A DNA stretch of 64,000 nt from Rhizobium sp. Q54 (GCA_945860095.1 CAMAPP010000002.1:4564-68563); one strand, 5' to 3'; counted from the stretch's first letter, positions 1 through 12,578 are shown. A program made the numbers and translations. The notes: generated from the sequence alone by a model not told the origin.

Positions 1-1290
1 GCCAAGCCCGAGGACATCACCCGGTTGGTCAAGGAGTACGGCCAGCAGAACTGGGCCGCGCTGCATCACCGCATGGACCACATGTACCGCAACGACAACG
101 CCGAATTGCCGACCCTCGATCCCTGGGTGCTGAAGACCAATCCGCCGGCCGAGCGTTTCCAGTTCGCGCGCAATCCGTATTTCCATCGCGTCGACGAGAC
201 GGGACAGCAATTGCCCTATATCGACGACGTGATTTTGAACATCGCCGATTCGAAGATCATTCCGGCCAAGACCGGCGCGGGCGAGTCCGATCTGCAGGCG
301 CGCTATATCCGCTTCGACAACTATACGTTCCTCCGGGAAAGCGAAAAGCGGACCGACCAATCGGTGTTTCTCTGGCGCACCGCCAAGGGATCGCATTTCG
401 CGCTGTTTCCGAACTTGAACGCCAACGATCCGGTCTGGCGCCAGATGTTGCGCGACGCGCGCTTTCGCCGCGCACTATCGCTGGCGATCAACCGGCACGA
501 GGTGAATCAGGTGGTTTATTTCGGCCTGGCGCTCAAGGCCGCGAACACGGTCCTGCCGCAAAGCCCGCTGTTCGAGAAGGCCTATCAGGCCGCGTGGGCG
601 GATTTCGATTTGAGCCGCGCCAATGCGTTGCTCGACGAAATCGGCTTGACCAAGCGCAACAATCGGGGCGTGCGCCTCTTACCCGATGGCCGGCCGCTTG
701 AGATCGTCGTCGAGACGGCGGGCGAGAGCACCGAGCAAACCGATGTTCTGGAGCTTATCCGCGATACCTGGATCAGGGCCGGCATCAAGCTTTTCATCAA
801 GCCGTCCCAGCGCGAGGTGTTCCGCAACCGAGTGTTCGCCGGCGACGCGATCATGGCCGTGTGGGGCGGGCTCGAGAACGGACTTGCGACGGCCGACCAA
901 AGCCCCGAGGAACTCGCCCCCACCAACCAGCAGCAGCTCCAATGGTCCAAATGGGGCCAGTTTTTCGAAACCGGAGGCAAGACCGGCGAGGCTCCGGACA
1001 TGCCGATCGCCCAGGAACTCGCACGCCTCAATCAGGCCTGGCGGCGCGAGGCGTCGGCGGAACGCCGCGCGGCCATCTGGAAACGCATGCTGGCAATCCA
1101 TGCCGACCAAGTATTCTCCATTGGGGTGGTGGCCGGAACCCTGCAGCCGGTGGTCGTGTCGAACAAATTGCGCAACGTTCCGGTCGAGGGTGTATTCAAC
1201 TGGGAGCCGGGCGCGCATTTCGGCATTTACCGCCCCGAGATTTTTTGGCTCGGCGAGTCCCGAAAGCCGCGCCCGCAGGCGACCAATTAA
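1..1290 (+). CDS. ABC transporter substrate-binding protein, family 5 (peptide/oligopeptide type), 5'-truncated at window edge
   Basis: Frame 1 is open from nt 1 (track ORF 25..1290). The C-terminal region is typical of SBP_bac_5 (DppA/YejA-like) binding proteins. Two cognate permease genes follow directly. Confidence 0.8.
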   Translation, partial: AKPEDITRLVKEYGQQNWAALHHRMDHMYRNDNAELPTLDPWVLKTNPPAERFQFARNPYFHRVDETGQQLPYIDDVILNIADSKIIPAKTGAGESDLQARYIRFDNYTFLRESEKRTDQSVFLWRTAKGSHFALFPNLNANDPVWRQMLRDARFRRALSLAINRHEVNQVVYFGLALKAANTVLPQSPLFEKAYQAAWADFDLSRANALLDEIGLTKRNNRGVRLLPDGRPLEIVVETAGESTEQTDVLELIRDTWIRAGIKLFIKPSQREVFRNRVFAGDAIMAVWGGLENGLATADQSPEELAPTNQQQLQWSKWGQFFETGGKTGEAPDMPIAQELARLNQAWRREASAERRAAIWKRMLAIHADQVFSIGVVAGTLQPVVVSNKLRNVPVEGVFNWEPGAHFGIYRPEIFWLGESRKPRPQATN

Positions 1291-1306
1291 GGGCCCGATA
1301 CCGGAC

Positions 1307-2305
1307 ATGTTGCGTTATATCGCCCATCGCTTTCTCATCATGGTGCCCACGCTGTTGGCGATCAGCTTCATCGTCTTCGTGATCATTCAATTGCCGCCGG
1401 GCGATTATCTGGAAACCTACATCGCCGAGCTGCAATCGCGCGGCGAGGGCGTGGACATCGAGAAGATCCAGTTCCTGCGCGAGTCGTACGGTCTCGACAA
1501 GCCGTTTCTGGTGCAATACGCCTATTGGGTCGCTGGCATGGTACAGGGCGATTTCGGCTACTCCTTCGAATTCAACCTGCCCGTTTCGCAAGTCGTGGGC
1601 GACCGACTTTGGCTCACGGCCCTGGTCTCGGTCGCGACGATCGCGTTCACTTGGATCGTCGCCTTTCCCATAGGCGTCTATTCCGCGACGCATCAATATA
1701 GCTGGGCCGATCACAGCCTGACTTTCGTCGGATTTCTCGGCTTGGCGACGCCCAATTTCCTGCTGGCTCTCGTCCTGCTGTATTTCGCCAATGTCTGGTT
1801 CGGCACGTCCATCGGCGGTCTGATGGACGAGAAATTTGTCGGCCAACCCTGGTCCTGGGCGAAATTGGTTTCGGTTCTGGCGCATTTGTGGATTCCGGTG
1901 ATCGTCATCGGCACCTCGGGCACCGCGGGCATGATCCGACGCCTGCGCGCCAATCTGCTCGACGAATTGCAGAAGCAATACGTCGTGACCGGCCGCGCCA
2001 AGGGCCTTCCGCCCTTCCGGTTGCTGGTCAAATATCCCTTGCGGATGTCGCTCAACCCGTTCATCGCCGATATCGGCAGCTTGCTGCCCGAGATCATTTC
2101 GGGCGCGGCCATCGTTTCGGTCGTGCTCTCGCTGCCGACCACGGGGCCGATGTTGCTCGAGGCCTTGCGCAGCCAGGACATGTACCTGGCCGGATCGTTC
2201 CTCATGTTCATGGCGACCCTCACGGTGATCGGCGTTCTCGTCTCGGATCTTTTGCTGGCGATCCTCGACCCGCGCATTCGCCTAGGCGGCGGAGCGGTCA
2301 AATGA
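1307..2305 (+). CDS. ABC transporter permease (DppB/YejB-like)
   Basis: Internal Met of track ORF 686..2305 (MLRYIAHRFLIMVPTLLAISFIVF...). Polytopic BPD_transp_1 permease features. Its stop overlaps the next start (ATGA). Confidence 0.85.
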   Translation: MLRYIAHRFLIMVPTLLAISFIVFVIIQLPPGDYLETYIAELQSRGEGVDIEKIQFLRESYGLDKPFLVQYAYWVAGMVQGDFGYSFEFNLPVSQVVGDRLWLTALVSVATIAFTWIVAFPIGVYSATHQYSWADHSLTFVGFLGLATPNFLLALVLLYFANVWFGTSIGGLMDEKFVGQPWSWAKLVSVLAHLWIPVIVIGTSGTAGMIRRLRANLLDELQKQYVVTGRAKGLPPFRLLVKYPLRMSLNPFIADIGSLLPEIISGAAIVSVVLSLPTTGPMLLEALRSQDMYLAGSFLMFMATLTVIGVLVSDLLLAILDPRIRLGGGAVK

Positions 2306-3462
2306 GCGCCGAACAGCCATTGCCGCACTACGTCGCCAGGGGCGCGTTCGATCCGCACGAGGCGGACGCGCTGACGGCAGGGCAAGAACGCTATTATCTG
2401 GCATCCCAATGGCGCCTCATGTGGTGGAAATTCCGCCGCCATCGGATCGCCGTCGTCTCCGGCGCCATCCTGGTCGCCATGTACGCGACGATCTTGGTGA
2501 GCGAGATTCTGGCGCCTTACAATCTCCATACCCGCGCCACGGATTACCTGTACGCGCCGCCGCAAGCGGTGCATTTCTTCCACGACGGGAGCTTGATCGG
2601 GCCGTTCGTGTATCCGCTGGAAGCGCGGCGAAACCTGGAAGTTCTCAAATGGGAGTATCGCGAGGACACGTCCCGCCCCTTGCCGATCCGATTTTTTTGC
2701 CTGGGCGATTCCTACGAGTTCTGGGGCGCCATCGAGGGGCGGTTCCACCTGGCATGCGCGCCGCGCGAGGGAACCTTGTTCCTGCTGGGCACGGACAGGC
2801 TCGGCCGGGACATCCTGTCGCGCATCGTTTACGGCGCGCGCATCTCCTTGACCATCGGCCTGATCGGCGTTGCGGTCAGCTTCTCGCTCGGGATCGTGAT
2901 CGGCGGTCTAGCCGGCTATTACGGCGGCTGGATCGACAATTTGACCCAGCGCGTCATCGAGATTTTCCGGTCGTTCCCGCATTTGCCTTTGTGGATGGCG
3001 CTGTCTGCGGCCTTGCCCGTCACCTGGAGTCCGCTGCTGATCTATATCGGCATCACGCTGATTCTAGGCCTGCTTGATTGGACGGGATTGGCGCGGGCGG
3101 TACGCTCGAAATTGCTCGCGCTGCGCGAGGAGGATTTTTGCACCGCCGCCCAGCTCATGGGCGCCTCGCCCAAGCGCATCATCGGCCGCCATCTGATGCC
3201 GAGCTTCACGAGCCATCTGATCGCTTCGGCCACGCTGTCGATTCCGCACATGATCCTGGGCGAGACGGCTCTGTCGTTCCTGGGTTTGGGATTGCGTCCG
3301 CCGATCACCAGCTGGGGCGTCTTGTTGAACGAAGCGCAGAACATCAATGTCGTCGCGCTCTATCCCTGGTTGATGCTGCCGGTGGTGCCGGTCATCGTCG
3401 TGGTTTTGGCGTTCAATTTTCTCGGCGACGGTCTCCGGGACGCGGCCGATCCCTACAAATAG
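2302..3462 (+). CDS. ABC transporter permease (DppC/YejE-like)
   Basis: Internal Met of track ORF 1888..3462 (MSAEQPLPHYVARG...). EAA-loop permease, translationally coupled to the preceding permease. No ATPase gene follows. Confidence 0.85.
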   Translation: MSAEQPLPHYVARGAFDPHEADALTAGQERYYLASQWRLMWWKFRRHRIAVVSGAILVAMYATILVSEILAPYNLHTRATDYLYAPPQAVHFFHDGSLIGPFVYPLEARRNLEVLKWEYREDTSRPLPIRFFCLGDSYEFWGAIEGRFHLACAPREGTLFLLGTDRLGRDILSRIVYGARISLTIGLIGVAVSFSLGIVIGGLAGYYGGWIDNLTQRVIEIFRSFPHLPLWMALSAALPVTWSPLLIYIGITLILGLLDWTGLARAVRSKLLALREEDFCTAAQLMGASPKRIIGRHLMPSFTSHLIASATLSIPHMILGETALSFLGLGLRPPITSWGVLLNEAQNINVVALYPWLMLPVVPVIVVVLAFNFLGDGLRDAADPYK

Positions 3463-3468
3463 CCGCGC

Positions 3469-4815
3469 CTAGGGCGCGAGCACGACAAGATCGAACGGCC
3501 GCTCGGTGCCCTCCACACGGCGCATGGCGCGAATCTCTTTATCGTCCGATGGGCGATAACCTTGGGTCCGCGCGAGCTCGAAAGTCTCAAGCGTGGTCAA
3601 GCCGCGGACCCCCTCGCTCTTCGTGTGCTTCTCGAGCTTGGCCGACAGATTCACCGCCTCCCCAATGACCGTGTATTCGAGCCGCGTCGCGTCGCCCACG
3701 GCGCCGAATATGATTCGGCCCGTGGCGACGGCGGCACCGACCCGCAAGGGTTCTAGCGACGCACCCGCCCGCGCCCGGTTCCAAGACTCGATCTCGGCGA
3801 GCACCTCGTCGACCGCGCGTAGAGCGTCGGCGGCATAGGTATCGCTGGGAATGGCGGCGCCGAAGGTCGTAAGAATTCCGTCGCCGAGGAATTTGTCGAT
3901 GCTGCCCCCGTGACGCTGGATGATCGGCACCGCGCGGGCCTGATATTCGGCAAGAAGCGCGATCGCCTGATCGGGCTCGACCCGTTGGGCGTAGCGCGTG
4001 AAGCCGCGCAGATCGAGATTGAGGATTGCGGCGTCGCGCGGCACGCCATGGCCCGCGGTAACCCGGTGTTCGGACGAAGTGATTCGCCGGGCGATCTCGG
4101 GCGCGAAGAAACGCGAAAGATCCCGCGCCGCCATGCCTTCGGACACGGAACGCACCAATAGCCCGCGCGCCCGCGCGATCGCGACGGCGAGCACGCCCGT
4201 GAATACCGCGATCGACAGAATTTTGTCGATCTCGGCACCGATCAGAATGCGGTTCGAAGTCATGTAGAGCACGTAGTCGCGCGTGATTCCGGCATCGGCC
4301 GCATCCGCGTCGATCGCGAGATGCGCGAGCCACAGCCAGCCAAGCGCCGCGACCGCGCCCGACAGCAGAACGAATCGCGCCTCGAACCGCAGGGCGCGAA
4401 GAGCGATGAAGATGAACAGGTAGGCGAACGTCGGAACCTTGAGCACGAAGGACGGCGGCTGGACGTACTGAATATGAAAACTCCAAATCAGCGACAGCAG
4501 CAGGCCGATATCGATGACGACCGAGAGCGCCAGGAACCAATCGGGCAATCGCCGGACGCACGCGACCGCCAACCGAAGAATCGTGAACGCGAGATAGGAC
4601 GCCAGAGCCCAGGGCACCGGATGAAACTCGACCCGCTCGTCGAAGGTCTTTGGCGAGACGAAGTAGAACATCCCGAAGACCAGAACGACGAAAAGTTGAA
4701 TCCAGCCGATCATAATTTCGCTGCGGTCTTGCTGGAGGCGAATTGCCGCGCGCACCCGCTCGGGCAAGGCGGATTCGTCGATTGCGGCGAAGAGCTTGCG
4801 CAACGTGGCGATCAT
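3469..4815 (-). CDS. membrane-anchored class III adenylate/guanylate cyclase
   Basis: N-terminal multi-TM region followed by a cyclase homology domain (…FLGDGILTTFGAAIP…RVGAAVATGRIIFGAVGD…EYTVIGEAVNLSAKLE). Start taken at the second Met (4815) so that it overlaps the upstream gene stop by 4 nt. The track ORF extends to 4860. Confidence 0.8.
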   Translation of the reverse strand: MIATLRKLFAAIDESALPERVRAAIRLQQDRSEIMIGWIQLFVVLVFGMFYFVSPKTFDERVEFHPVPWALASYLAFTILRLAVACVRRLPDWFLALSVVIDIGLLLSLIWSFHIQYVQPPSFVLKVPTFAYLFIFIALRALRFEARFVLLSGAVAALGWLWLAHLAIDADAADAGITRDYVLYMTSNRILIGAEIDKILSIAVFTGVLAVAIARARGLLVRSVSEGMAARDLSRFFAPEIARRITSSEHRVTAGHGVPRDAAILNLDLRGFTRYAQRVEPDQAIALLAEYQARAVPIIQRHGGSIDKFLGDGILTTFGAAIPSDTYAADALRAVDEVLAEIESWNRARAGASLEPLRVGAAVATGRIIFGAVGDATRLEYTVIGEAVNLSAKLEKHTKSEGVRGLTTLETFELARTQGYRPSDDKEIRAMRRVEGTERPFDLVVLAP

Positions 4816-5672
4816 GGGATATCGCGCGCGCGCTTTTCGAGCCACAGGCTCGATTCCCACGCGCCGGGTACGATGGGCAAGCGAGCGAGCGCCTTGACGG
4901 CGGGATCATCGGCCATCCGCGTCGCCGCATAACGGCTTGAAAACGCGATCTCGAACGCTCCGCCCTGGAGGAGCGCGGCGATGGCCGTCTGCTCGTTATA
5001 GCCGCGCCAAAGCCAGTCGCCGGGATAGGCGTCGGGCAGGAAAATGTCGTGCACATGCACCGCCGCGCCAGCGGGTAGCAGGGGCAGGATATCGTTCACG
5101 ACGATGTCGACATCGCTGCCCGGCACCAGGACGTGACTCGAATCGACGAATAGGATGTCCCCGGGTCCGAGCCCGCGAAACAGGCCGGGATCGGCGGCTT
5201 GGAGCGTCGCCGCGACGCGTTCCACCCCTTGCGGCAAGACCGCGCGCGGCGAGGGATCGAGGGCCATATGCCGGGTCGTCAAGCCTCCGTCGGCCACGGC
5301 GCGGGCGATGAATCGGGTGGAGTGTCCGGCGCCGATTTCGATCACGGTCTTAGGCTTGAGGTGGCGCACCATCGCATAGAGCGCGGCGGCATCAAGCCGC
5401 GGAAACCAATCTTGGTCCCAGCGCGCGCCGTCAGGCCCCTGCCCTATCGCGTCGAGATCGCGGGCCAGCGCGGCGATACGATCCAGCGCCAGGCGCATGC
5501 GCGGCCGGGCGGCATCGAAGACCGCCTCGAGAGCCTTGTACGGCGGCCGGCGCGCCGGAATGGCGTCCGCGAGCCGATAGGGAATGAAAATACCCTGCGG
5601 TCCAAGGCCAAGCACGGTCGACAATCCCATCGCCAACCGGCGCGATGCCGCGTGTAAATCGGCGAAACGCAC
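4812..5672 (-). CDS. class I SAM-dependent methyltransferase (Methyltransf_24-like)
   Basis: Motif …KPKTVIEIGAGHSTRFIA… (a glycine-rich SAM-binding loop). It lies 3 nt downstream of the MBL gene and overlaps the cyclase start. Confidence 0.7.
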   Translation of the reverse strand: MRFADLHAASRRLAMGLSTVLGLGPQGIFIPYRLADAIPARRPPYKALEAVFDAARPRMRLALDRIAALARDLDAIGQGPDGARWDQDWFPRLDAAALYAMVRHLKPKTVIEIGAGHSTRFIARAVADGGLTTRHMALDPSPRAVLPQGVERVAATLQAADPGLFRGLGPGDILFVDSSHVLVPGSDVDIVVNDILPLLPAGAAVHVHDIFLPDAYPGDWLWRGYNEQTAIAALLQGGAFEIAFSSRYAATRMADDPAVKALARLPIVPGAWESSLWLEKRARDIP

Positions 5673-5675
5673 CGA

Positions 5676-6557
5676 TCAGGGCCTGAGGATCAACGACTCG
5701 CGCGCGACCACGGTGCCGGGCCTCGCGCGATCGGCCTCTTCTTGGACCCGGTCCATGAAGTCGTCGTCATGATCAGGGTCGTGATGGAAAACGACCAGGG
5801 TCTTGACGCGGGCCGCATCGGCAAGGCGCGCGCCCTCCTGCCAGGTGGAATGGCCCCATCCTGCAAAGCGCGGATATTCCTCGTCGGTATAGGTCGAATC
5901 ATAGATGAATATGTCGGCATCGCGAACGAGATCGACGATCGTGCGGTTTCTCGTTCCGATCTCGTGTTCGGTATCGGTCACGTAGCAAACCGCCTTGCCG
6001 CCATGTTCCACGCGGTAGCCGGTCGCGCGATCGGGATGGTTGAGGGCGGCCGTGCGAACGGTGATCCCAGGAGCCGGCGACAAGGTCTCGCCCAATCGGA
6101 AGTCGTTCGTCGTGATGTCCGCGCCCAGAATACCGAATGGAACCGGAAACAGCGGCGACGACATCACGCGGCATAGAACCTCGTTCAAGTTGCGTTCGGG
6201 CGCGAGATGGCCCGCCCACAAACGAATGGTATTTCCTGGTCCGTACATGGGACGAAAGAACGGCAATCCGGCGACATGGTCGATATGGGTGTGGGAAAGA
6301 AATAGGTCGATATCCGCGGCGCCGTTGTCCGCGAGGGATTTCCCGAGGCCGCGCAGCCCCGTGCCCGCGTCGAATATCAGCAACCGGCCTCCACAGCGAA
6401 CCTCCACGCACGAAGTATTTCCCCCGTACCGCAAATGGCTCGACTCCGGCGTCGCGACACTGCCGCGCACCCCCCAGAAGCGGATCAAGAATTCGTCAAC
6501 CTGGGTTGCCAATGCGTTCGACCCTTGCCAAAGCCAAGCCAGCCCCCGCTCCACCAT
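5676..6557 (-). CDS. MBL-fold metallo-hydrolase (PhnP / class II phosphodiesterase-like)
   Basis: HxHxDH motif (LSHTHIDHVAGLPFF) and the N-terminal GVRGS…GGNTSC signature of Lactamase_B_2 proteins. Confidence 0.8.
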   Translation of the reverse strand: MVERGLAWLWQGSNALATQVDEFLIRFWGVRGSVATPESSHLRYGGNTSCVEVRCGGRLLIFDAGTGLRGLGKSLADNGAADIDLFLSHTHIDHVAGLPFFRPMYGPGNTIRLWAGHLAPERNLNEVLCRVMSSPLFPVPFGILGADITTNDFRLGETLSPAPGITVRTAALNHPDRATGYRVEHGGKAVCYVTDTEHEIGTRNRTIVDLVRDADIFIYDSTYTDEEYPRFAGWGHSTWQEGARLADAARVKTLVVFHHDPDHDDDFMDRVQEEADRARPGTVVARESLILRP

Positions 6558-6633
6558 TCGATAACCGCCGCAAGCGGGGGTAAATGACGGTCATCGCGCC
6601 GCTCCCAATGTGTTTTCCAAAAAAACTGGCCGA

Positions 6634-7344
6634 CTAGAGTTGCAATCGATAGCCGTTTGCCTCGGTAACCAAGATCGAAGCGCGAGTCGAATCGGGTTCG
6701 ATTTTCTGGCGCAGACGGTAAACATGGGTCTCGAGCGTATGCGTCGTCACGCTCGCATTATAGCCCCAGACCTCGGTCAATAGCTCCTCCCGCCCGACCG
6801 CCGCGCCCGCGCGATACAGATAGCGCAGGATGGCAGCCTCTTTATCCGTAAGCCGTATTTTCCTGCCTCCTGCTTCGTCGAGGAGCAAGCGCGCAAGAGG
6901 CCGGAATTCATATGGGCCGATCTTGAATACCGCGTCCTCGCTTTGTTCGGCCAAACGCAGCTGGACGCGAATGCGCGCGAGCAGCTCTCCCAGGCGGAAT
7001 GGCTTCACCACATAATCGTTTGCGCCCGAATCGAGACCCTTGACGGTATCGGCTTCGGAATCGGCGCCAGTCAACATGATGATCGGCGCACCGATCTCCG
7101 CGTCCCGCATCCGCTTGCAGGCATCGCGCCCGTCGCAATCGGGCAGGCCCACGTCGAGGATCACGAGATCGACCCGATGGGCCGCAAGAAGCGCCATGGC
7201 CTCGGCGCCCGTTCCCGCCTCGATGGTTTCGAAGCCGTTTTCATGGCCGAGCTGCTCGGCAAGCGAGGTGCGAAAGGGCGCATCGTCGTCGACCAGGAGG
7301 ATGCACTTGAGCGCTGCGGCTTGTCGGGTCGCGGGTTCAGACAT
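6634..7344 (-). CDS. OmpR-family response regulator transcription factor
   Basis: Receiver domain (LLVDDD…ILDVGLPDCDG…KP) plus a winged-helix trans_reg_C tail (…YLYRAG…VYRLRQKIE…GYRL). No histidine kinase gene is adjacent. Confidence 0.85.
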   Translation of the reverse strand: MSEPATRQAAALKCILLVDDDAPFRTSLAEQLGHENGFETIEAGTGAEAMALLAAHRVDLVILDVGLPDCDGRDACKRMRDAEIGAPIIMLTGADSEADTVKGLDSGANDYVVKPFRLGELLARIRVQLRLAEQSEDAVFKIGPYEFRPLARLLLDEAGGRKIRLTDKEAAILRYLYRAGAAVGREELLTEVWGYNASVTTHTLETHVYRLRQKIEPDSTRASILVTEANGYRLQL

Positions 7345-7371
7345 GGCGCCCTCGGCTGCGCTTCGCGGCGC

Positions 7372-8223
7372 TCAAGACGATAGTGCGTGGCCGCGCACGA
7401 CGGTGAAGAGGTCGCTGTCGGACTTTGCGAGATCGCCCACGATGCTGAAGTGATCGTGATCCGCGAGATCGAGCGCGGCGCGCAATTCGTTGCCCGCGCG
7501 CCGCCAGGCCGCGCCGAAATCCTCCTGCTGACGGTGAAATTCGGCGGATTCGCGCGCGCCCACCGCGAGGCTAAGCGGCGGGCCGCCGGAAGAGGCATGG
7601 CGCAGGGGCGAATATTTTTGCGCGCTTTCCGCGTCGAGATTGATCGCGTCGTTGAGATAGGACAGGCGGATCGGTTCGAGATCGTAGATTCCGCTGATGG
7701 CAACCCCGCCGGTCATCTTCGCGCCCCGACCCGTTTGCGCGGCGGCAAGCATGGCCAATAGATGGCCGCCCGCGGAATGGCCGGACACGGAAATTCGCTC
7801 GGGATCGCCACCTAATTTCTCGGCGTGTGCGACAAGCCACGCGAACGCTTGCTCCACGCAGGAGACGATGTCGGCCATCGACGCCGCCGGCGCGAGCGGA
7901 TAGGCGATGGGCGCATAGGAAATGCCCGCCGCCGCGAAATTGGGCGCGGGGAAGCTGAAACTAGCCTTGTCGAGCGCGCGCCAATAGCCGCCATGGATGA
8001 ACATATGGATAGGTGCATGCCGGCGTTCGGCCGGGAAGAAATCGAGGCGTTGGCGCGGGCCGGAGCCATAAGGAATATCGAGTTCCGCGCGAGCGCGGCG
8101 ACGCACCTCGGCGCTTCGCTCCGCCCAGTCCGCCAAAACAATCCCATGGTTGGGAACCATGGCCCGATTGTTGTATTGGGCATCGAGCGCGGCACGGTCG
8201 TAATCGCGAAATATCTTATTCAT
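7372..8223 (-). CDS. alpha/beta hydrolase (arylformamidase/esterase-like)
   Basis: HGGYW oxyanion motif and GHSAGG nucleophile elbow. Confidence 0.75.
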   Translation of the reverse strand: MNKIFRDYDRAALDAQYNNRAMVPNHGIVLADWAERSAEVRRRARAELDIPYGSGPRQRLDFFPAERRHAPIHMFIHGGYWRALDKASFSFPAPNFAAAGISYAPIAYPLAPAASMADIVSCVEQAFAWLVAHAEKLGGDPERISVSGHSAGGHLLAMLAAAQTGRGAKMTGGVAISGIYDLEPIRLSYLNDAINLDAESAQKYSPLRHASSGGPPLSLAVGARESAEFHRQQEDFGAAWRRAGNELRAALDLADHDHFSIVGDLAKSDSDLFTVVRGHALSS

Positions 8224-8376
8224 CCCACGAAGCCTTATCTGCTTCCCGGGGCGCCGACAACACCCGGAAATTCTTGCCCCCGGGTCGAATTTGCCGGAGC
8301 TTGCGCCGATAAGACGTTGATTTCGCGCATTTCACTCTTGGCCCGTTCTTTGCTCTTAACCGAGCGTGAGGACCGC

Positions 8377-9213
8377 ATGGCCGACGCATTGAACACCAGC
8401 CCCCCGTTGAGGATGAGCGAGGGCGCCGACCCGCTTGCGCGCGTAGAGCCGCCCGAGGGCTATCGGCGCATGAAGCTGTGGGCTGGCGACGAATTCTCGT
8501 TCGCCGATATCCTGGATTTTATCAACCCTCTGCAACATATACCGGTCGTTTCCACGATTTATCGCCAGATCACGGGCGACAAGATCGGCGCGCTCGCGCA
8601 ATTGACCATAGGCGGTATTTTGGGTGGACCCATCGGCCTGATCGGCGCCGTCGCCAACGTGGCGATGGAGACCGAGAGCGGGAAAAGTCTCGACCAGGTG
8701 GCGTCTTCCGCCTTGGGGCTCAACCTGTTCAGTGGCCAGGACGCCGACGCCGTGGCAGAGAAATCGCCCGCGGCCACGCCGGCAAACACAATCAGCGTCG
8801 CGCCGGGCCCGGACCGGGCCGACGGCATCGAGCGCGACATAGATTCCTTGACGATCCTGGTCGCCGAAGCGGCAGCCACGCCGCAGCCGACAGCGAGCGC
8901 GCGTTCCGGCGCCCGTCCCGCGGAATCATTGGCCGGCCGCGTGGACGGCTCGGCCCGAACTCCCCTTGCCCGCAAGGCAGCGTCCTTAGCTTCGGAGGCC
9001 GCGATCGGGCCTTCCGCACGCCAGGCATTGGCGGGGCACGGCGGCATGCCGGTGGCCTTGGGCCGCTTCGATCCGATAGCGGCTGCGCTGGGCGCACAGA
9101 GCCGTTCCGGGAATCCGAGCCTTCCGCTTTCGATGATGCAAGCGCTCGACAAATACGAGGCGCTGGCGCGGCAGAAGCCCGAAGTCGCGCGGCAACTCGA
9201 CCAATCGAACTGA
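8377..9213 (+). CDS. hypothetical protein (Ala/Gly-rich, low complexity C-terminal half)
   Basis: Internal Met of track ORF 7825..9213 (MADALNTSPPL…). It is divergent from the hydrolase gene. No recognisable domain. Confidence 0.5.
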   Translation: MADALNTSPPLRMSEGADPLARVEPPEGYRRMKLWAGDEFSFADILDFINPLQHIPVVSTIYRQITGDKIGALAQLTIGGILGGPIGLIGAVANVAMETESGKSLDQVASSALGLNLFSGQDADAVAEKSPAATPANTISVAPGPDRADGIERDIDSLTILVAEAAATPQPTASARSGARPAESLAGRVDGSARTPLARKAASLASEAAIGPSARQALAGHGGMPVALGRFDPIAAALGAQSRSGNPSLPLSMMQALDKYEALARQKPEVARQLDQSN

Positions 9214-9215
9214 CG

Positions 9216-9911
9216 CTAAGCTGGAGCCGGGCGAGCGCCGAAAATAGCGGTACCGACGCGGACATGCGTTGCGCCGAAGCGAATCGCGTCCTCGTAGTCG
9301 GCGCTCATTCCCATGCTTAAGGCGGAAAGTTGGTTCCGGCGCGCAATTTCACGCAGCAAGGCGAAGTGGAGCGAGGGCGGTTCGTCCGCCGGCGGGATGC
9401 ACATGAGGCCGAGAATCGGAAGTCCAAGACCGTCGCGGCATTGCGCGATGAAGCCGTCCGCCTCGGCGGGCGCAATTCCCGCCTTCTGGTCTTCCTCGCC
9501 GGTATTCACCTGAATCAAACACGCCGGGCGGCGCCCCTGCTTGGCCATCTGTTCGGCGACCGCCACGGCAAGTTTCGGCCGGTCGATGCTTTGGATAACG
9601 TCGAACAGAGAAACCGCCTCTTTGACCTTGTTGGTTTGAAGGGGCCCGATCAGATGCAAGCGAATCTCCGGAAATTCGCTCCGGAGCGCCGGCCATTTCA
9701 CTGCGGCCTCCTGGACGCGGTTCTCGCCAAAATCGCTCTGGCCCGCGGCGATCGCCGCGCGGCAGCTCGCGGCCGGATGGAATTTTCCGACGGCAATCAA
9801 CGTAATATCCGCCGAGTTTCGTCCGACGGCGCGGCAGCTATCATCGATGCGCGCGCGTACCGCCCGGAGATTGCTCGCTATGGTCGCAATTTCGACATGC
9901 GTATCGGACAT
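9216..9911 (-). CDS. yggS: YggS-family pyridoxal-phosphate homeostasis protein
   Basis: Alanine-racemase N-terminal-like fold (…IAVGKF…LHLIGPLQTNKVK…SMGMSADYE…). Length 231 aa. Confidence 0.85.
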   Translation of the reverse strand: MSDTHVEIATIASNLRAVRARIDDSCRAVGRNSADITLIAVGKFHPAASCRAAIAAGQSDFGENRVQEAAVKWPALRSEFPEIRLHLIGPLQTNKVKEAVSLFDVIQSIDRPKLAVAVAEQMAKQGRRPACLIQVNTGEEDQKAGIAPAEADGFIAQCRDGLGLPILGLMCIPPADEPPSLHFALLREIARRNQLSALSMGMSADYEDAIRFGATHVRVGTAIFGARPAPA

Positions 9912-9993
9912 CGTTCCGTCTCATTTGCCGGCCGGGAGACTAATTCGGCCGGGAGGCCAACAATGCCCAGACATGCGGGCTAGGCGCCACCGA

Positions 9994-11871
9994 TCAGGGC
10001 CGGACGCGGAAATTTCGCCGCACGTACTCAAGCAAAATCGCGACCGAGTCGTCGACCTTCTGATTCGTTGTGTCGACGACCAGATCGGGCGATTCCGGCA
10101 CTTCATAGGGTGCGGATATGCCCGTGAAATCGCGGATTTCCCCCGACCGTGCGCGCTTGTAGAGGCCCTTGGGATCGCGCCGTTCGCAGGTCGCCAAATC
10201 CGCGCGGACATAGACTTCGTGAAACCGCCCCGCGGCGGCGGCGCGGGATTCCGCGCGATCCTTGCAATAGGGCGAAATGAACGCCGTGATCGCCACGACC
10301 CCAGCCTCGGCAAACAGCGCGGCGACTTCTCCGACCCGGCGAATGTTTTCCGCCCGGTCTTCGGGCGAAAATCCAAGATTGGCGTTGAGGCCGCGGCGAA
10401 CATTGTCGCCGTCAAGCACGAAGACGTTGAAGCCTTCCTTGAACAGCCTCGCCTCGAGTTCGATCGCCAAGGTGGATTTGCCCGAGCCGCTGAGTCCGGT
10501 CAGCCAAATCACGCCGCCTTCGTGACCCGATTGGGCGGTCCGCATCTCCGCCGTCACGCGGTGCTCCACCACTGTCAGATTTTCCGAACGGACCAAGACG
10601 TGGCGGCGAAGGTCGGAATAGCCGGACATGTCGATCAATCCGCCGCCGGCGACATCGAAGCCATCGACGAGCACGAACCGGCCGGTTCGCGGATTCTGCG
10701 TCGAGGGATCGAGCGCAAGCATGGCGCGGGACCGCATGACGACCTCGGCGACCGTATTGCGTTCGACCTGGTTCGCCGGCGCGGCCGATAGGTCCGTCGT
10801 ATTGATGACGCGGTCTATCGAGTGGACCTCGATCGGAACCTGCCGCGTTGCAAGCTTGAGGGTGTAGGTCTTGCCCGCGCGCAGCGGTTCCCGGCCCAAC
10901 CAGAAAAGTCGGGCTTTGAATACGTTCGTTTCCCACGGCGCATGATCGACATGGCTCGCAAGTTCGCCCCGCTCCGCGAACACCTGTTCCTCGAGCGTGA
11001 TGCCGATGGATTGTCCCGCTTGGGCCTCGTGGGCGGCCTCGGTCGACGGCCAGGATTCTATCGATTTGACCCGCGCCGTCATGTTGGAAGGCGAGAACAG
11101 CAGGCGTTCGCCGACGCGAAGGCGGCCGGTTTCGATGCGCCCGGTGTAGATTCGTCGATCGTCGAATTTGTAAACGTCTTGAATGGGGAAGCGGAGCGGC
11201 AAATCCTCGAGGCCCTCGGGCATCGCGAATTCATCCAAGGCCTCGATCAGATCGGGCCCCGAATACCACGGCATGCGAGCGGAATGGCCTTTGATATTGT
11301 CGCCCTCGCGCGCCGACGCGGGGATCACGCGTTTGGCATGGATCTGGATATCCGCCAGATACCGGCGCACGTCCTTTTCAAGTTCGGAAAATCGGGCGGC
11401 GTCGTAGCCGACCAAATCCATTTTCGTCACCACAACGAACACCTGCATCACGCCCATCAAGGACAGGACGTAACCGTGGCGGCGCGACTGCTCGCGCACG
11501 CCCTCGAGCGCATCAATGACGAGAATCGCGCCGTCGCACCCCGCGGCACCTGAAATCATGTTCTTTAGGAATTCGCGGTGTCCGGGAGCATCGACGAGCA
11601 CGTAACGGCGTTGCGGCGTGCGAAACTGGATGTAGCTCACATCGATGGTGACGCCCTGGTCGCGCTCGGGCTGCAGCGCGTCCGTGACGAAGGCCCATTC
11701 GAAGGCCATATTGCGCCTGTGGCAGGTGGCTTCGACCTCCGCCAATTTTCCCGCGGGCAAGGCGCCGGTTTCGTGGAGCATGCGTCCGACGAGGGTGGAT
11801 TTGCCGTGATCGACATGTCCTACGACTACGACGCGAAAGGCCGGTGTCGGGGAATGGCTGTGGGGGGACAT
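9994..11871 (-). CDS. cysNC: bifunctional sulfate adenylyltransferase subunit 1 / adenylylsulfate kinase (CysN/CysC fusion, NodQ-like)
   Basis: N-terminal GTPase domain ([19 protein letters not shown]…DAPGH…TKMDLV). C-terminal APS kinase ([17 protein letters not shown]…). Start placed at MSPHSHSP. The track ORF's extra 82-aa N-extension looks spurious. Confidence 0.9.
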
Positions 11872-12080
11872 GAACTGCGGCGACACTGGGTTGTGGATTT
11901 TCCAGGAAATAGGCACTTGGTCTTCCCATATCCAGGGCTGGAGACAAAGGTATTTGTAGGGCCTACCGGGGGGTTCGGGCTGGCGGGCGGTTCCGCGACA
12001 GTTGTTCGCGGGTACCCGGTTGCCTATCATCCGGCGCGGAAGCGACGGATACCAAATAATCGGAAAGGCGATGTGACGGC

Positions 12081-12578
12081 ATGATTTTTCATGGGTTGAG
12101 GACAAAGGCTGCGACACCGATTCTATTGGTCATGGGCTTGGTGTTCGCGCTGGCCGCTTGCACGCGCAACACGGCGCCGCCAAAGCAAGAAGGCGTCGCC
12201 GGCGCGGACGGCTATAATTACCTTGGCACACCGCAAGGTTCGAGCGCTTCGGCGCCGGCGGTCAATTCGTTCCTTTGGCGTGCGAGTTTGGAAACCGTGG
12301 CGTTCATGCCCCTGGCTTCGGCCGATGCCTATGGCGGCGTGTTGATTACCGACTGGTATGCACCGCCGGAGACGCCCGCCGAGCGGTTCAAGATCAATGT
12401 CTTCGTGACCGGCCGGCAGCTGCGGGCCGACGCGTTGCGCGCGGTCGTGTTCAAGCAAGCGCGGCGGCCCGACGGGTCCTGGATCGATGCCTCGGTGGAT
12501 CCTGGCACGGCGCGGAGCCTCGAGGACACGATTCTTGGGCGCGCGCGGCAAATGCGCGCCGATTCACCCAACCAATAA
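12081..12578 (+). CDS. DUF3576 domain-containing lipoprotein
   Basis: Signal peptide plus lipobox (LVFALAAC). Conserved alphaproteobacterial small lipoprotein found upstream of leuS. Confidence 0.7.

Follow-up and report, generated by a model that had tools for sequence, protein, structure and literature searches.

Rhizobia, Rhodospirillales and other Alphaproteobacteria have many class III nucleotidyl cyclases and few known phosphodiesterases (PDEs). One described alphaproteobacterial cyclase locus with accessory genes is gcyA / RC1_3785-gcyB-gcyC-cgrA of R. centenum, where a CRP-type receptor controls the gcyB-gcyC-cgrA operon by way of a perfect TGTGA-N6-TCACA site. The six-helix class III (IIIb-like) cyclases, represented by mycobacterial Rv1625c/Cya, combine six transmembrane segments (6-TM) with a single catalytic domain. 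Degradation of cyclic mononucleotides (cNMPs) is catalyzed by, amongst others, the atypical class II PDEs Rv1339 of M. tuberculosis, CpdA (Cgl2508) of C. glutamicum and YhfI of B. subtilis, which share the signature [T/S]HxHxDH and which the authors of this definition placed adjacent to RNase Z (PMC9293780). CenR is an orphan-encoded cell-envelope regulator of Alphaproteobacteria, whose orthologues in Rhodobacter and Caulobacter share about 70% identity and whose kinase, CenK, is encoded elsewhere; in Brucella, cenR (BMEI0066/otpR) belongs to a predicted operon with BMEI0067 (BPE005), which encodes a cNMP-binding protein of 153 aa. Here we describe a cluster at positions 3469-8223 of a 64,000-nt stretch of DNA from Rhizobium sp. 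Q54, to which we refer as the window. In the direction of transcription, the cluster encodes an alpha/beta hydrolase, an OmpR-type response regulator (RR), a hydrolase of the metallo-beta-lactamase (MBL) fold, an S-adenosylmethionine (SAM)-dependent methyltransferase (MTase) and a polytopic class III cyclase. With moderate confidence, and on the basis of sequences and structure models, we lean towards reading the last three genes as an operon for the synthesis and degradation of cAMP, often under a CRP-type receptor, to which an accessory MTase has been attached and which lies beside a CenR-like RR.

Comparison of related loci identified the MBL-MTase-cyclase triad as the recurrent unit. An MTase-centred scan with one genome per species yielded 80 loci from Rhodospirillales, Kiloniellales, Sneathiellales, Hyphomicrobiales and other Alphaproteobacteria, of which 72 had enough flanking sequence on both sides. 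A failure of the three genes to stay together elsewhere had been named beforehand as grounds for abandoning the proposal made in the preliminary description of this cluster, but the triad with its 6-TM cyclase was found to be conserved across alphaproteobacterial orders, in 25 of the 72 species loci. Only the MBL and MTase genes were present in 15 loci and only the MTase and cyclase genes in 3, while 3 others had the order MBL-soluble cyclase-MTase at the same chromosomal position; the MBL-MTase pair was found in 40/72. The estimated gap between the MBL and MTase genes in the MTase-centred loci had a median of about 7 nt, a near-zero spacing that suggests co-translation, and that between the MTase and cyclase genes was about 60 nt. 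In a second survey, an MBL-centred metagenome scan, the MTase gene was located directly 3' of the MBL gene in at least 29 of 58 loci, and a cyclase gene followed in 9 of 33. Cyclase-centred look-ups returned the triad once more, with the same 4-nt ATGA overlap as in the window (L165), and two loci with the order RR-MBL-cyclase (L166 and L167); since such loci without the MTase occur, the MTase is not obligatory. Each member of the triad is lost at times, and the triad is set in a conserved syntenic frame that consists of the RR, YggS, a YkuD protein and a convergent ABC importer.

The preliminary description had also regarded all five genes as one functional unit, and this was not borne out. 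The alpha/beta hydrolase gene is found upstream of the RR gene in just 16 of the 80 loci, a gene of the major facilitator superfamily on the opposite strand separates the RR and MBL genes in 13, and operators between the latter two point to a separate promoter. The RR gene itself is located upstream of the MBL gene in 30/62 MTase-centred and 20/54 MBL-centred loci. Both the RR and the hydrolase are conserved as neighbours but dispensable as members of the operon, and the hydrolase, which reaches 175 bits with HaHSL_fam (cut-off 320), probably stands outside the module.

Relatives of the MBL protein were found to adjoin cyclases of three unrelated architectures, namely 6-TM, soluble (approximately 407 aa) and CHASE2. 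The soluble cyclase is encoded between the MBL and MTase genes in L004, L013, L028 and L036, and after a shorter MTase in L123, L131, L132, L135 and L138, whilst in L149 and L155 a CHASE2 cyclase lies near the MBL relative together with a cNMP-binding protein. Further neighbours of MBL relatives are a cNMP-binding ABC exporter alongside the soluble cyclase, cNMP-binding proteins of about 150 and 240 aa, a Crp-type regulator (L143) and, in cultured Niveispirillum, a tandem cNMP-binding protein. On pSymB of S. meliloti, an MBL homologue is encoded 3 kb from a soluble cyclase. The open reading frame (ORF) 'c53' between the MBL and MTase genes was at one point regarded as encoding an unknown protein, an assignment that we rejected because it is the soluble class III cyclase; this gene is intact in L004 and L036 and frameshifted in the metagenome-assembled genomes L013 (8694-9995) and L028 (8700-9998), which reflects either assembly errors or pseudogenisation.

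To compare operator frequencies, TGTGA-N6-TCACA sites were counted over 1.42 Mb of loci and in 27.5 kb of DNA upstream of MBL genes. The MBL-upstream DNA contained 5/8 of the perfect palindromes where 0.06 were expected, which represents an approximately 80-fold enrichment, and 8/20 of the sites with one mismatch where 0.24 were expected. The spacer sequence varies from site to site, a sign of several sites that arose independently or have long been maintained. CRP-type palindromes are present in related loci in the counterpart of the RR-MBL spacer, and the MBL operon is therefore predicted to have a separate promoter. The operator is of the same type as that at the cyclase locus of R. centenum, which is a precedent for a CRP-type receptor that exerts feedback on a PDE or cyclase operon and from which the present locus differs in that the messenger in R. 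centenum is cGMP and that the window has no adjacent CRP gene.

The HTHIDH motif that had been claimed for the MBL protein is present as SHTHIDH, where the family consensus is THTHxDH, and none of the candidate metal ligands varies among 26 homologues. Located within a PF12706 domain, this block conforms to the signature of the atypical class II PDEs. The NCBIfam model for cyclic nucleotide-degrading phosphodiesterases (NF041851) aligns with the full length of the protein at 52 bits, well below its equivalog cut-off of 400, and all 26 family members match it with a best E-value of 8e-15. The RNase Z equivalogs score 72-75 bits against cut-offs of 252-293, and their match consists of two partial stretches, mainly residues 186-290; every family member matches both RNase Z models in this partial way. 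As every NCBIfam score is far under its cut-off, the protein is not squarely a member of the RNase Z, PqqB or PhnP families; a clear place in a non-PDE family such as RNase Z or PqqB had been named beforehand as counting against the preliminary proposal. RNase Z has about 307 aa and a tRNA-binding arm, and the MBL protein about 277 aa. PF02112 (PDEase_II, the typical class II PDE) gave no match for the MBL protein of the window, and one homologue matched it at an E-value of 0.021 across 24 residues. In a structure comparison, the predicted fold was nearest to RNase Z, BA1088 and YhfI, and the model superposes on YhfI (6KNS) and BA1088 (1ZKP). The family resembles the atypical class II PDEs in its MBL fold without the RNase Z arm and in the shared SHTHIDH signature. 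It differs from them in being alphaproteobacterial, whereas the known members come from Actinobacteria and Firmicutes, in exceeding their length by about 30 aa, with an H-L-x-PE...PLFPVP insertion that is conserved, and in being usually co-translated with a methyltransferase; the relationship is a distant one. Taken together, the pairing of synthesis with degradation, as originally proposed, is supported by the SHTHIDH motif, by the cyclase, cNMP-receptor and Crp neighbours and by the CRP operators, and falls short at the NF041851 cut-off. More than 7,000 proteins match the MBL family at E≤0.001, and copies are carried by Rhizobium chromids as well as by S. meliloti pSymB. In S. meliloti SM11, the pSymB homologue of the MBL gene has as its divergent neighbour a gene for a DUF3095 protein (L168, 4567-5778, minus strand; E-value 7e-130).

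The catalytic domain of the cyclase exceeds the curated threshold of PF00211 (32.5 bits, cut-off 21.9) and has relatives in the PDB with E-values down to 2e-25, the best being Synechocystis Cya2 (2W01) and its E-to-K adenylate-cyclase variant 6FHT. In the alignment with Cya2 both metal-binding Asp residues are present (LDLRGFT and FLGDG), and they are kept in the orthologues. The specificity pair consists of Lys (IDKFLGDG) and Thr (EYTVIG), which is of the adenylate type, and ATP is therefore the predicted substrate; in 6FHT the same Lys turns Cya2 from a guanylate into an adenylate cyclase. As the preliminary description had stated, the N-terminus is polytopic, with six hydrophobic segments over residues 31-221. 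This 6-TM domain is conserved as well as the catalytic domain (motifs IWSFHxQYxQPPxFxLKxPT, FIFIALRALRF and TRDY), has no match in Pfam, and precedes the PDB matches, which start only at about residue 217. A conserved domain without relatives fits a sensory or regulatory role. We also considered a relationship between this domain and the LPG_synthase_TM-like protein encoded ahead of the MTase in Microvirga and Chelatococcus, which was rejected because BLASTP and hhalign show none. With the Rv1625c/Cya class the cyclase shares the combination of 6-TM and a single catalytic domain, presumably as a homodimer. The differences are a membrane domain without detectable similarity to known anchors and a conserved Lys that replaces an Arg.

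The MTase belongs to the class I SAM-dependent enzymes (PF13578, 42.5 bits, cut-off 26.3), with 3035 homologues at E≤0.001. The motifs EIGxGHSTR (ExGxGHST), IDPxPRA, DSSH, HxHD and YNEQ are invariant, as is D139. A search of the PDB with its sequence gave no sequence-level match. The AlphaFold model (pLDDT 87) shows a class I core, and the best Foldseek matches are MeT1, PaMTH1, TrmR, CmcI and COMT, with E-values of 1e-6 to 1e-4, TM-scores of 0.4-0.55 and 12-17% identity. Weak as these matches are, the modelled fold resembles that of the cation-dependent O-methyltransferases (CmcI, MeT1, COMT/CCoAOMT-like, TrmR), with a common Rossmann core, a Gly-rich loop for the binding of SAM, an acidic residue that follows strand 2, and clusters of Asp and His at the place where those enzymes bind metal. 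Besides the low identity, it is the N-terminal 100 residues, which are helical and family-specific, that set the MTase apart from them. No gene is more closely associated with the MBL gene than that of the MTase, which is nevertheless neither constant nor always tied to cyclic-nucleotide genes. In Microvirga, Chelatococcus and Alsobacter the MTase occurs without MBL and cyclase genes, behind an LPG_synthase_TM-like membrane protein, and neither gene is present in L005, L010, L030 and L045. In these last four loci, the MTase is separated from the ABC permease by a second, shorter Methyltransf_24 paralogue (about 245 aa) and by a DUF454 protein.

The RR has all the residues for phosphorylation (DDD19-21, D64, T92, K114), has the winged-helix output domain of the OmpR/PhoB type, and is 53-67% identical across orders in the related loci. 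In accordance with the preliminary description it is an orphan, no histidine kinase being called within 10 kb. The accompanying suggestion that the membrane domain of the cyclase serves as the sensor for this RR found no support. The phospho-acceptor residues are intact, and the RR is similar to the CenR class, the kinase of which is encoded elsewhere. It reached none of the NCBIfam equivalogs, the best being MtrA with 160 bits against a cut-off of 300. The RR may be the CenR orthologue, which we treat as a lead rather than a result; its orphan status, an identity of about 60-67% across orders, a YkuD neighbour and the Brucella precedent speak for this indirectly. In L165-L167 and many other loci, a gene just upstream of the RR gene, in the opposite orientation, codes for a small YkuD protein (L,D-transpeptidase domain; 165-195 aa). 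In R. sphaeroides, genes for L,D-transpeptidases are reportedly CenR targets, and the YkuD neighbour thus provides circumstantial support for the CenR identity. The Brucella cenR-BMEI0067 operon likewise has an orphan OmpR-type regulator gene followed by a cyclic-nucleotide gene, but the partner there is a small cNMP-binding protein and not a set of a PDE-like enzyme, an MTase and a cyclase. The possibility that BMEI0067 is a homologue of the MBL protein was rejected, since the literature describes it as the cNMP-binding protein mentioned above.

In the cAMP-turnover reading that we favour, the polytopic cyclase would produce cAMP, and its conserved 6-TM domain would probably tune this activity to a cue from the membrane or envelope. 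The MBL enzyme would hydrolyse the cyclic nucleotide in the manner of Rv1339, CpdA and YhfI, as suggested by motif, fold and genomic context, and the MTase would be its tightly coupled partner, dispensable in some lineages. Judging from the operator enrichment, a CRP-type cNMP receptor would drive the operon from its own promoter in many lineages, which would provide feedback by the messenger. In many Alphaproteobacteria the three genes occupy one chromosomal position, flanked by the gene for the CenR-like OmpR-type RR and by a convergent Yej/Opp-type ABC importer, and receptors would be encoded elsewhere. One candidate receptor could be the protein with cNMP_binding and FHA domains encoded 40 kb away in the window, for which Pfam matched both of the domains previously assigned to it. 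Apart from the replacement of Arg by Lys in the cyclase, the domains and catalytic residues of all three triad proteins are intact.

Several observations weigh against this reading. The MTase occurs without MBL and without cyclase in 25 of the 72 loci, and in about half of the MBL loci neither a cyclase nor a cNMP gene lies within reach. Synteny extends over the entire region, YggS and the ABC importer included, and the adjacency of the triad genes may be partly inherited rather than selected. No TGTGA-N6-TCACA site with at most one mismatch is present in the window, its own RR-MBL spacer included. At the transition-state position of the cyclase, Arg is replaced by Lys (VNLSAKLE, compared to VNLTYRIE in Cya2), so that the N-x-x-x-R pattern is absent although its Asn is kept. 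This Lys occurs in at least 90% of 31 aligned cyclase orthologues; the exchange is conservative and cyclase activity is a plausible prediction. The MBL protein scores somewhat higher on the RNase Z models than on the cNMP-PDE model, all scores being far below cut-off, and a phmmer search with it does not reach YhfI. The PDE role of the MBL family, which is deduced from motif, fold and genomic context, can be called probable. Lastly, the turnover of cAMP gives the MTase no role.

Some of these points would be accounted for if the synteny were inherited without any shared function, in other words if housekeeping genes had remained side by side since the alphaproteobacterial ancestor. In that case, the MBL protein would function as a nuclease similar to RNase Z but lacking the arm, or as a hydrolase of small molecules, the MTase would have RNA or a metabolite as its substrate, and the cyclase, one of many paralogues, would lie there by chance. 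The equal conservation of the flanks (YggS, the YkuD protein, RibA and, in 45/66 loci, the ABC permease), the dispensability of any triad gene, the presence of RNase Z and ELAC1 among the best sequence and fold matches of the MBL protein, and that of the tRNA methyltransferase TrmR among the fold matches of the MTase are all consistent with such a scenario. It is, however, difficult to reconcile with the in-place exchange of the 6-TM cyclase for an unrelated soluble cyclase between MBL and MTase, with the CHASE2 cyclases, Crp and cNMP-binding proteins next to MBL relatives outside the block, with the strong enrichment of CRP operators upstream of MBL genes, and with the near-zero MBL-MTase spacing. 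The RNase Z scores are also low and their alignment partial. Inherited synteny is the main rival to cAMP turnover, and we regard it as rather unlikely.

A role for the MTase would be provided by a modified-nucleotide pathway, in which it acts on the cyclase product or on the nucleotide released by the MBL enzyme through O-methylation of ribose or phosphate. MBL and MTase do form the tightest pair and occur together with different cyclase types, the structural analogues of the MTase include the sugar O-methyltransferases of the MeT1 and CmcI families, and its invariant His/Asp clusters are consistent with a metal-assisted site for small-molecule O-methylation. Nevertheless, this pathway is purely conjectural: the fold matches are generic, the MTase is missing from intact RR-MBL-cyclase loci, and elsewhere it stands alone or beside the LPG_synthase_TM-like protein. 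We know of no methylated cyclic mononucleotide that has been described as a messenger, and we consider the pathway improbable. Slightly less probable still is the more specific proposal that the MBL-MTase pair makes or inactivates a methylated nucleotide, such as O-methylated cAMP or AMP, and is wired to the CenR locus. If true, a methylated-nucleotide operon would represent second-messenger chemistry so far undescribed in bacteria. We rejected as very improbable a Pycsar-like anti-phage cassette with a cyclic pyrimidine signal upon infection, because the match of the catalytic domain to the PADLOC PycC profiles (3e-18) reflects ordinary class III homology with adenylate-type specificity residues, because weak or faint Anti-Pycsar Apyc1 matches of MBL homologues are set against a lack of PADLOC matches for the MBL, MTase and hydrolase proteins of the cluster, and because there is no adjacent effector with cNMP-binding plus TM/TIR domains and the chromosomal position is fixed across orders, unlike that of a mobile defence island.

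Cyclase/PDE pairs, PDEs of the MBL type and CRP feedback are each already known separately. Three elements of the cAMP-turnover reading are new: a probable PDE role for a large MBL family of Alphaproteobacteria, the habitual grouping of this family into one operon with a 6-TM cyclase that has a new family of membrane domain and with a Methyltransf_24 enzyme, and the position of this operon at a CenR-like locus. Should this MBL family prove to be the missing phosphodiesterase for cAMP/cGMP, it would offer a handle on how cyclic-nucleotide signals are ended, and the atypical class II PDEs would extend from Gram-positive bacteria to Proteobacteria. The recurrent CenR-like neighbour and the Brucella cenR-cNMP operon suggest an unexplored link between cyclic nucleotides and the cell envelope, and the substrate of the MTase, once found, could reveal new regulation or chemistry.

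The features of the window that are relevant to this study are listed in Table 1. All five minus-strand ORFs of the preliminary description were recovered, Pfam matched the domain type claimed for each protein, and the spacings were exactly as given, with 27 nt between the hydrolase and RR genes, 76 nt between the RR and MBL genes, 3 nt between the MBL and MTase genes (TGA-TCG-GTG), and a 4-nt ATGA stop/start overlap between the MTase and cyclase genes. Homology searches returned many homologues for each of the five genes, which are therefore not chance ORFs.

Table 1. Features of the cluster and its surroundings in the window.
Feature	Coordinates	Strand	Domain match or basis
6-TM class III nucleotidyl cyclase, predicted adenylate cyclase, 448 aa	3469..4815	-	PF00211 (Guanylate_cyc, C-terminal)
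Methyltransf_24 SAM-dependent methyltransferase (MTase), 286 aa	4812..5672	-	PF13578, 1.3e-10
MBL-fold hydrolase, probable cyclic-nucleotide phosphodiesterase, 293 aa (longest ORF)	5676..6557	-	Lactamase_B_2 (PF12706), 1e-22
RR-MBL intergenic spacer, probable promoter region of MBL operon	6558..6633	-	sequence read
OmpR-family response regulator (RR), 236 aa	6634..7344	-	PF00072 + PF00486
alpha/beta hydrolase, 283 aa, facultative neighbour	7372..8223	-	BD-FAE/Abhydrolase_3
cNMP_binding + FHA protein, 264 aa	44808..45602	-	PF00027 8e-15, PF00498 1e-5

Two of the start codons deserve comment. Homologues of the MBL protein usually have 277 aa and span just 92-95% of the 293-aa query, and residues 1-19 of the model are disordered (pLDDT <50). 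Translation therefore probably starts at the TTG at about position 6512, which would give a protein of 278 aa and widen the RR-MBL gap to about 121 nt. For the MTase, the database call begins at Met15 (P0001, 272 aa), and an exact-sequence look-up with the 286-aa protein found no match. The residues ahead of Met15 are kept in homologues, so that the GTG at 5672 is a plausible start that we prefer over the shorter call.

The RR-MBL spacer of the window contains an 11-bp perfect palindrome, ATGACCGTCAT, at 6594-6584 on the minus strand, and a T7 run at 6615-6621 (minus strand) immediately past the RR stop codon. The palindrome, retained only in part in locus L001 (ATGACTGTCGAT), may serve as an operator or as a weak terminator. 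A promoter scan showed no sigma-70 consensus, and Rfam matched neither a riboswitch nor any other RNA family at positions 3000-10000. Among the intergenic regions, a terminator-like hairpin occurs only at the convergent junction of the cyclase and ABC permease genes, where a GC-rich structure at 3463-3479 (TCGCGCC-CTA-GGCGCGG) extends across the 6 nt that separate the two stop codons and is possibly a bidirectional terminator.

The ABC importer had been described as lacking its ATPase and as interrupted by the cluster, both of which proved wrong. On longer contigs of the same organism (L081, 12169-18152) a fused double ABC ATPase of 628 aa (ABC_tran x2 + oligo_HPY) precedes the solute-binding protein, just beyond the left edge of the window. 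The order of this Opp/Yej-type importer is ATPase-solute-binding protein-permease-permease, the window (1-3462) starts inside the gene for the solute-binding protein, and the importer operon merely ends convergent with the cyclase gene, an arrangement kept in 45/66 related loci. On the other side of the cluster, at 9216-12117 on the minus strand, the window encodes a YggS-family pyridoxal phosphate-binding protein and a fused CysN/CysC (sulfate adenylyltransferase/APS kinase). YggS stays near the RR across many orders, RibA is among the conserved flanks of triad loci, and LeuS and a DUF3576 protein are encoded further along in L081. An ORF of 280 aa that separates YggS from the hydrolase (8478-9320, plus strand) has no match in Pfam or NCBIfam; the source contigs have it called as a gene, L001 as the closest relative has it with 72% identity, and it was not seen in remoter loci.

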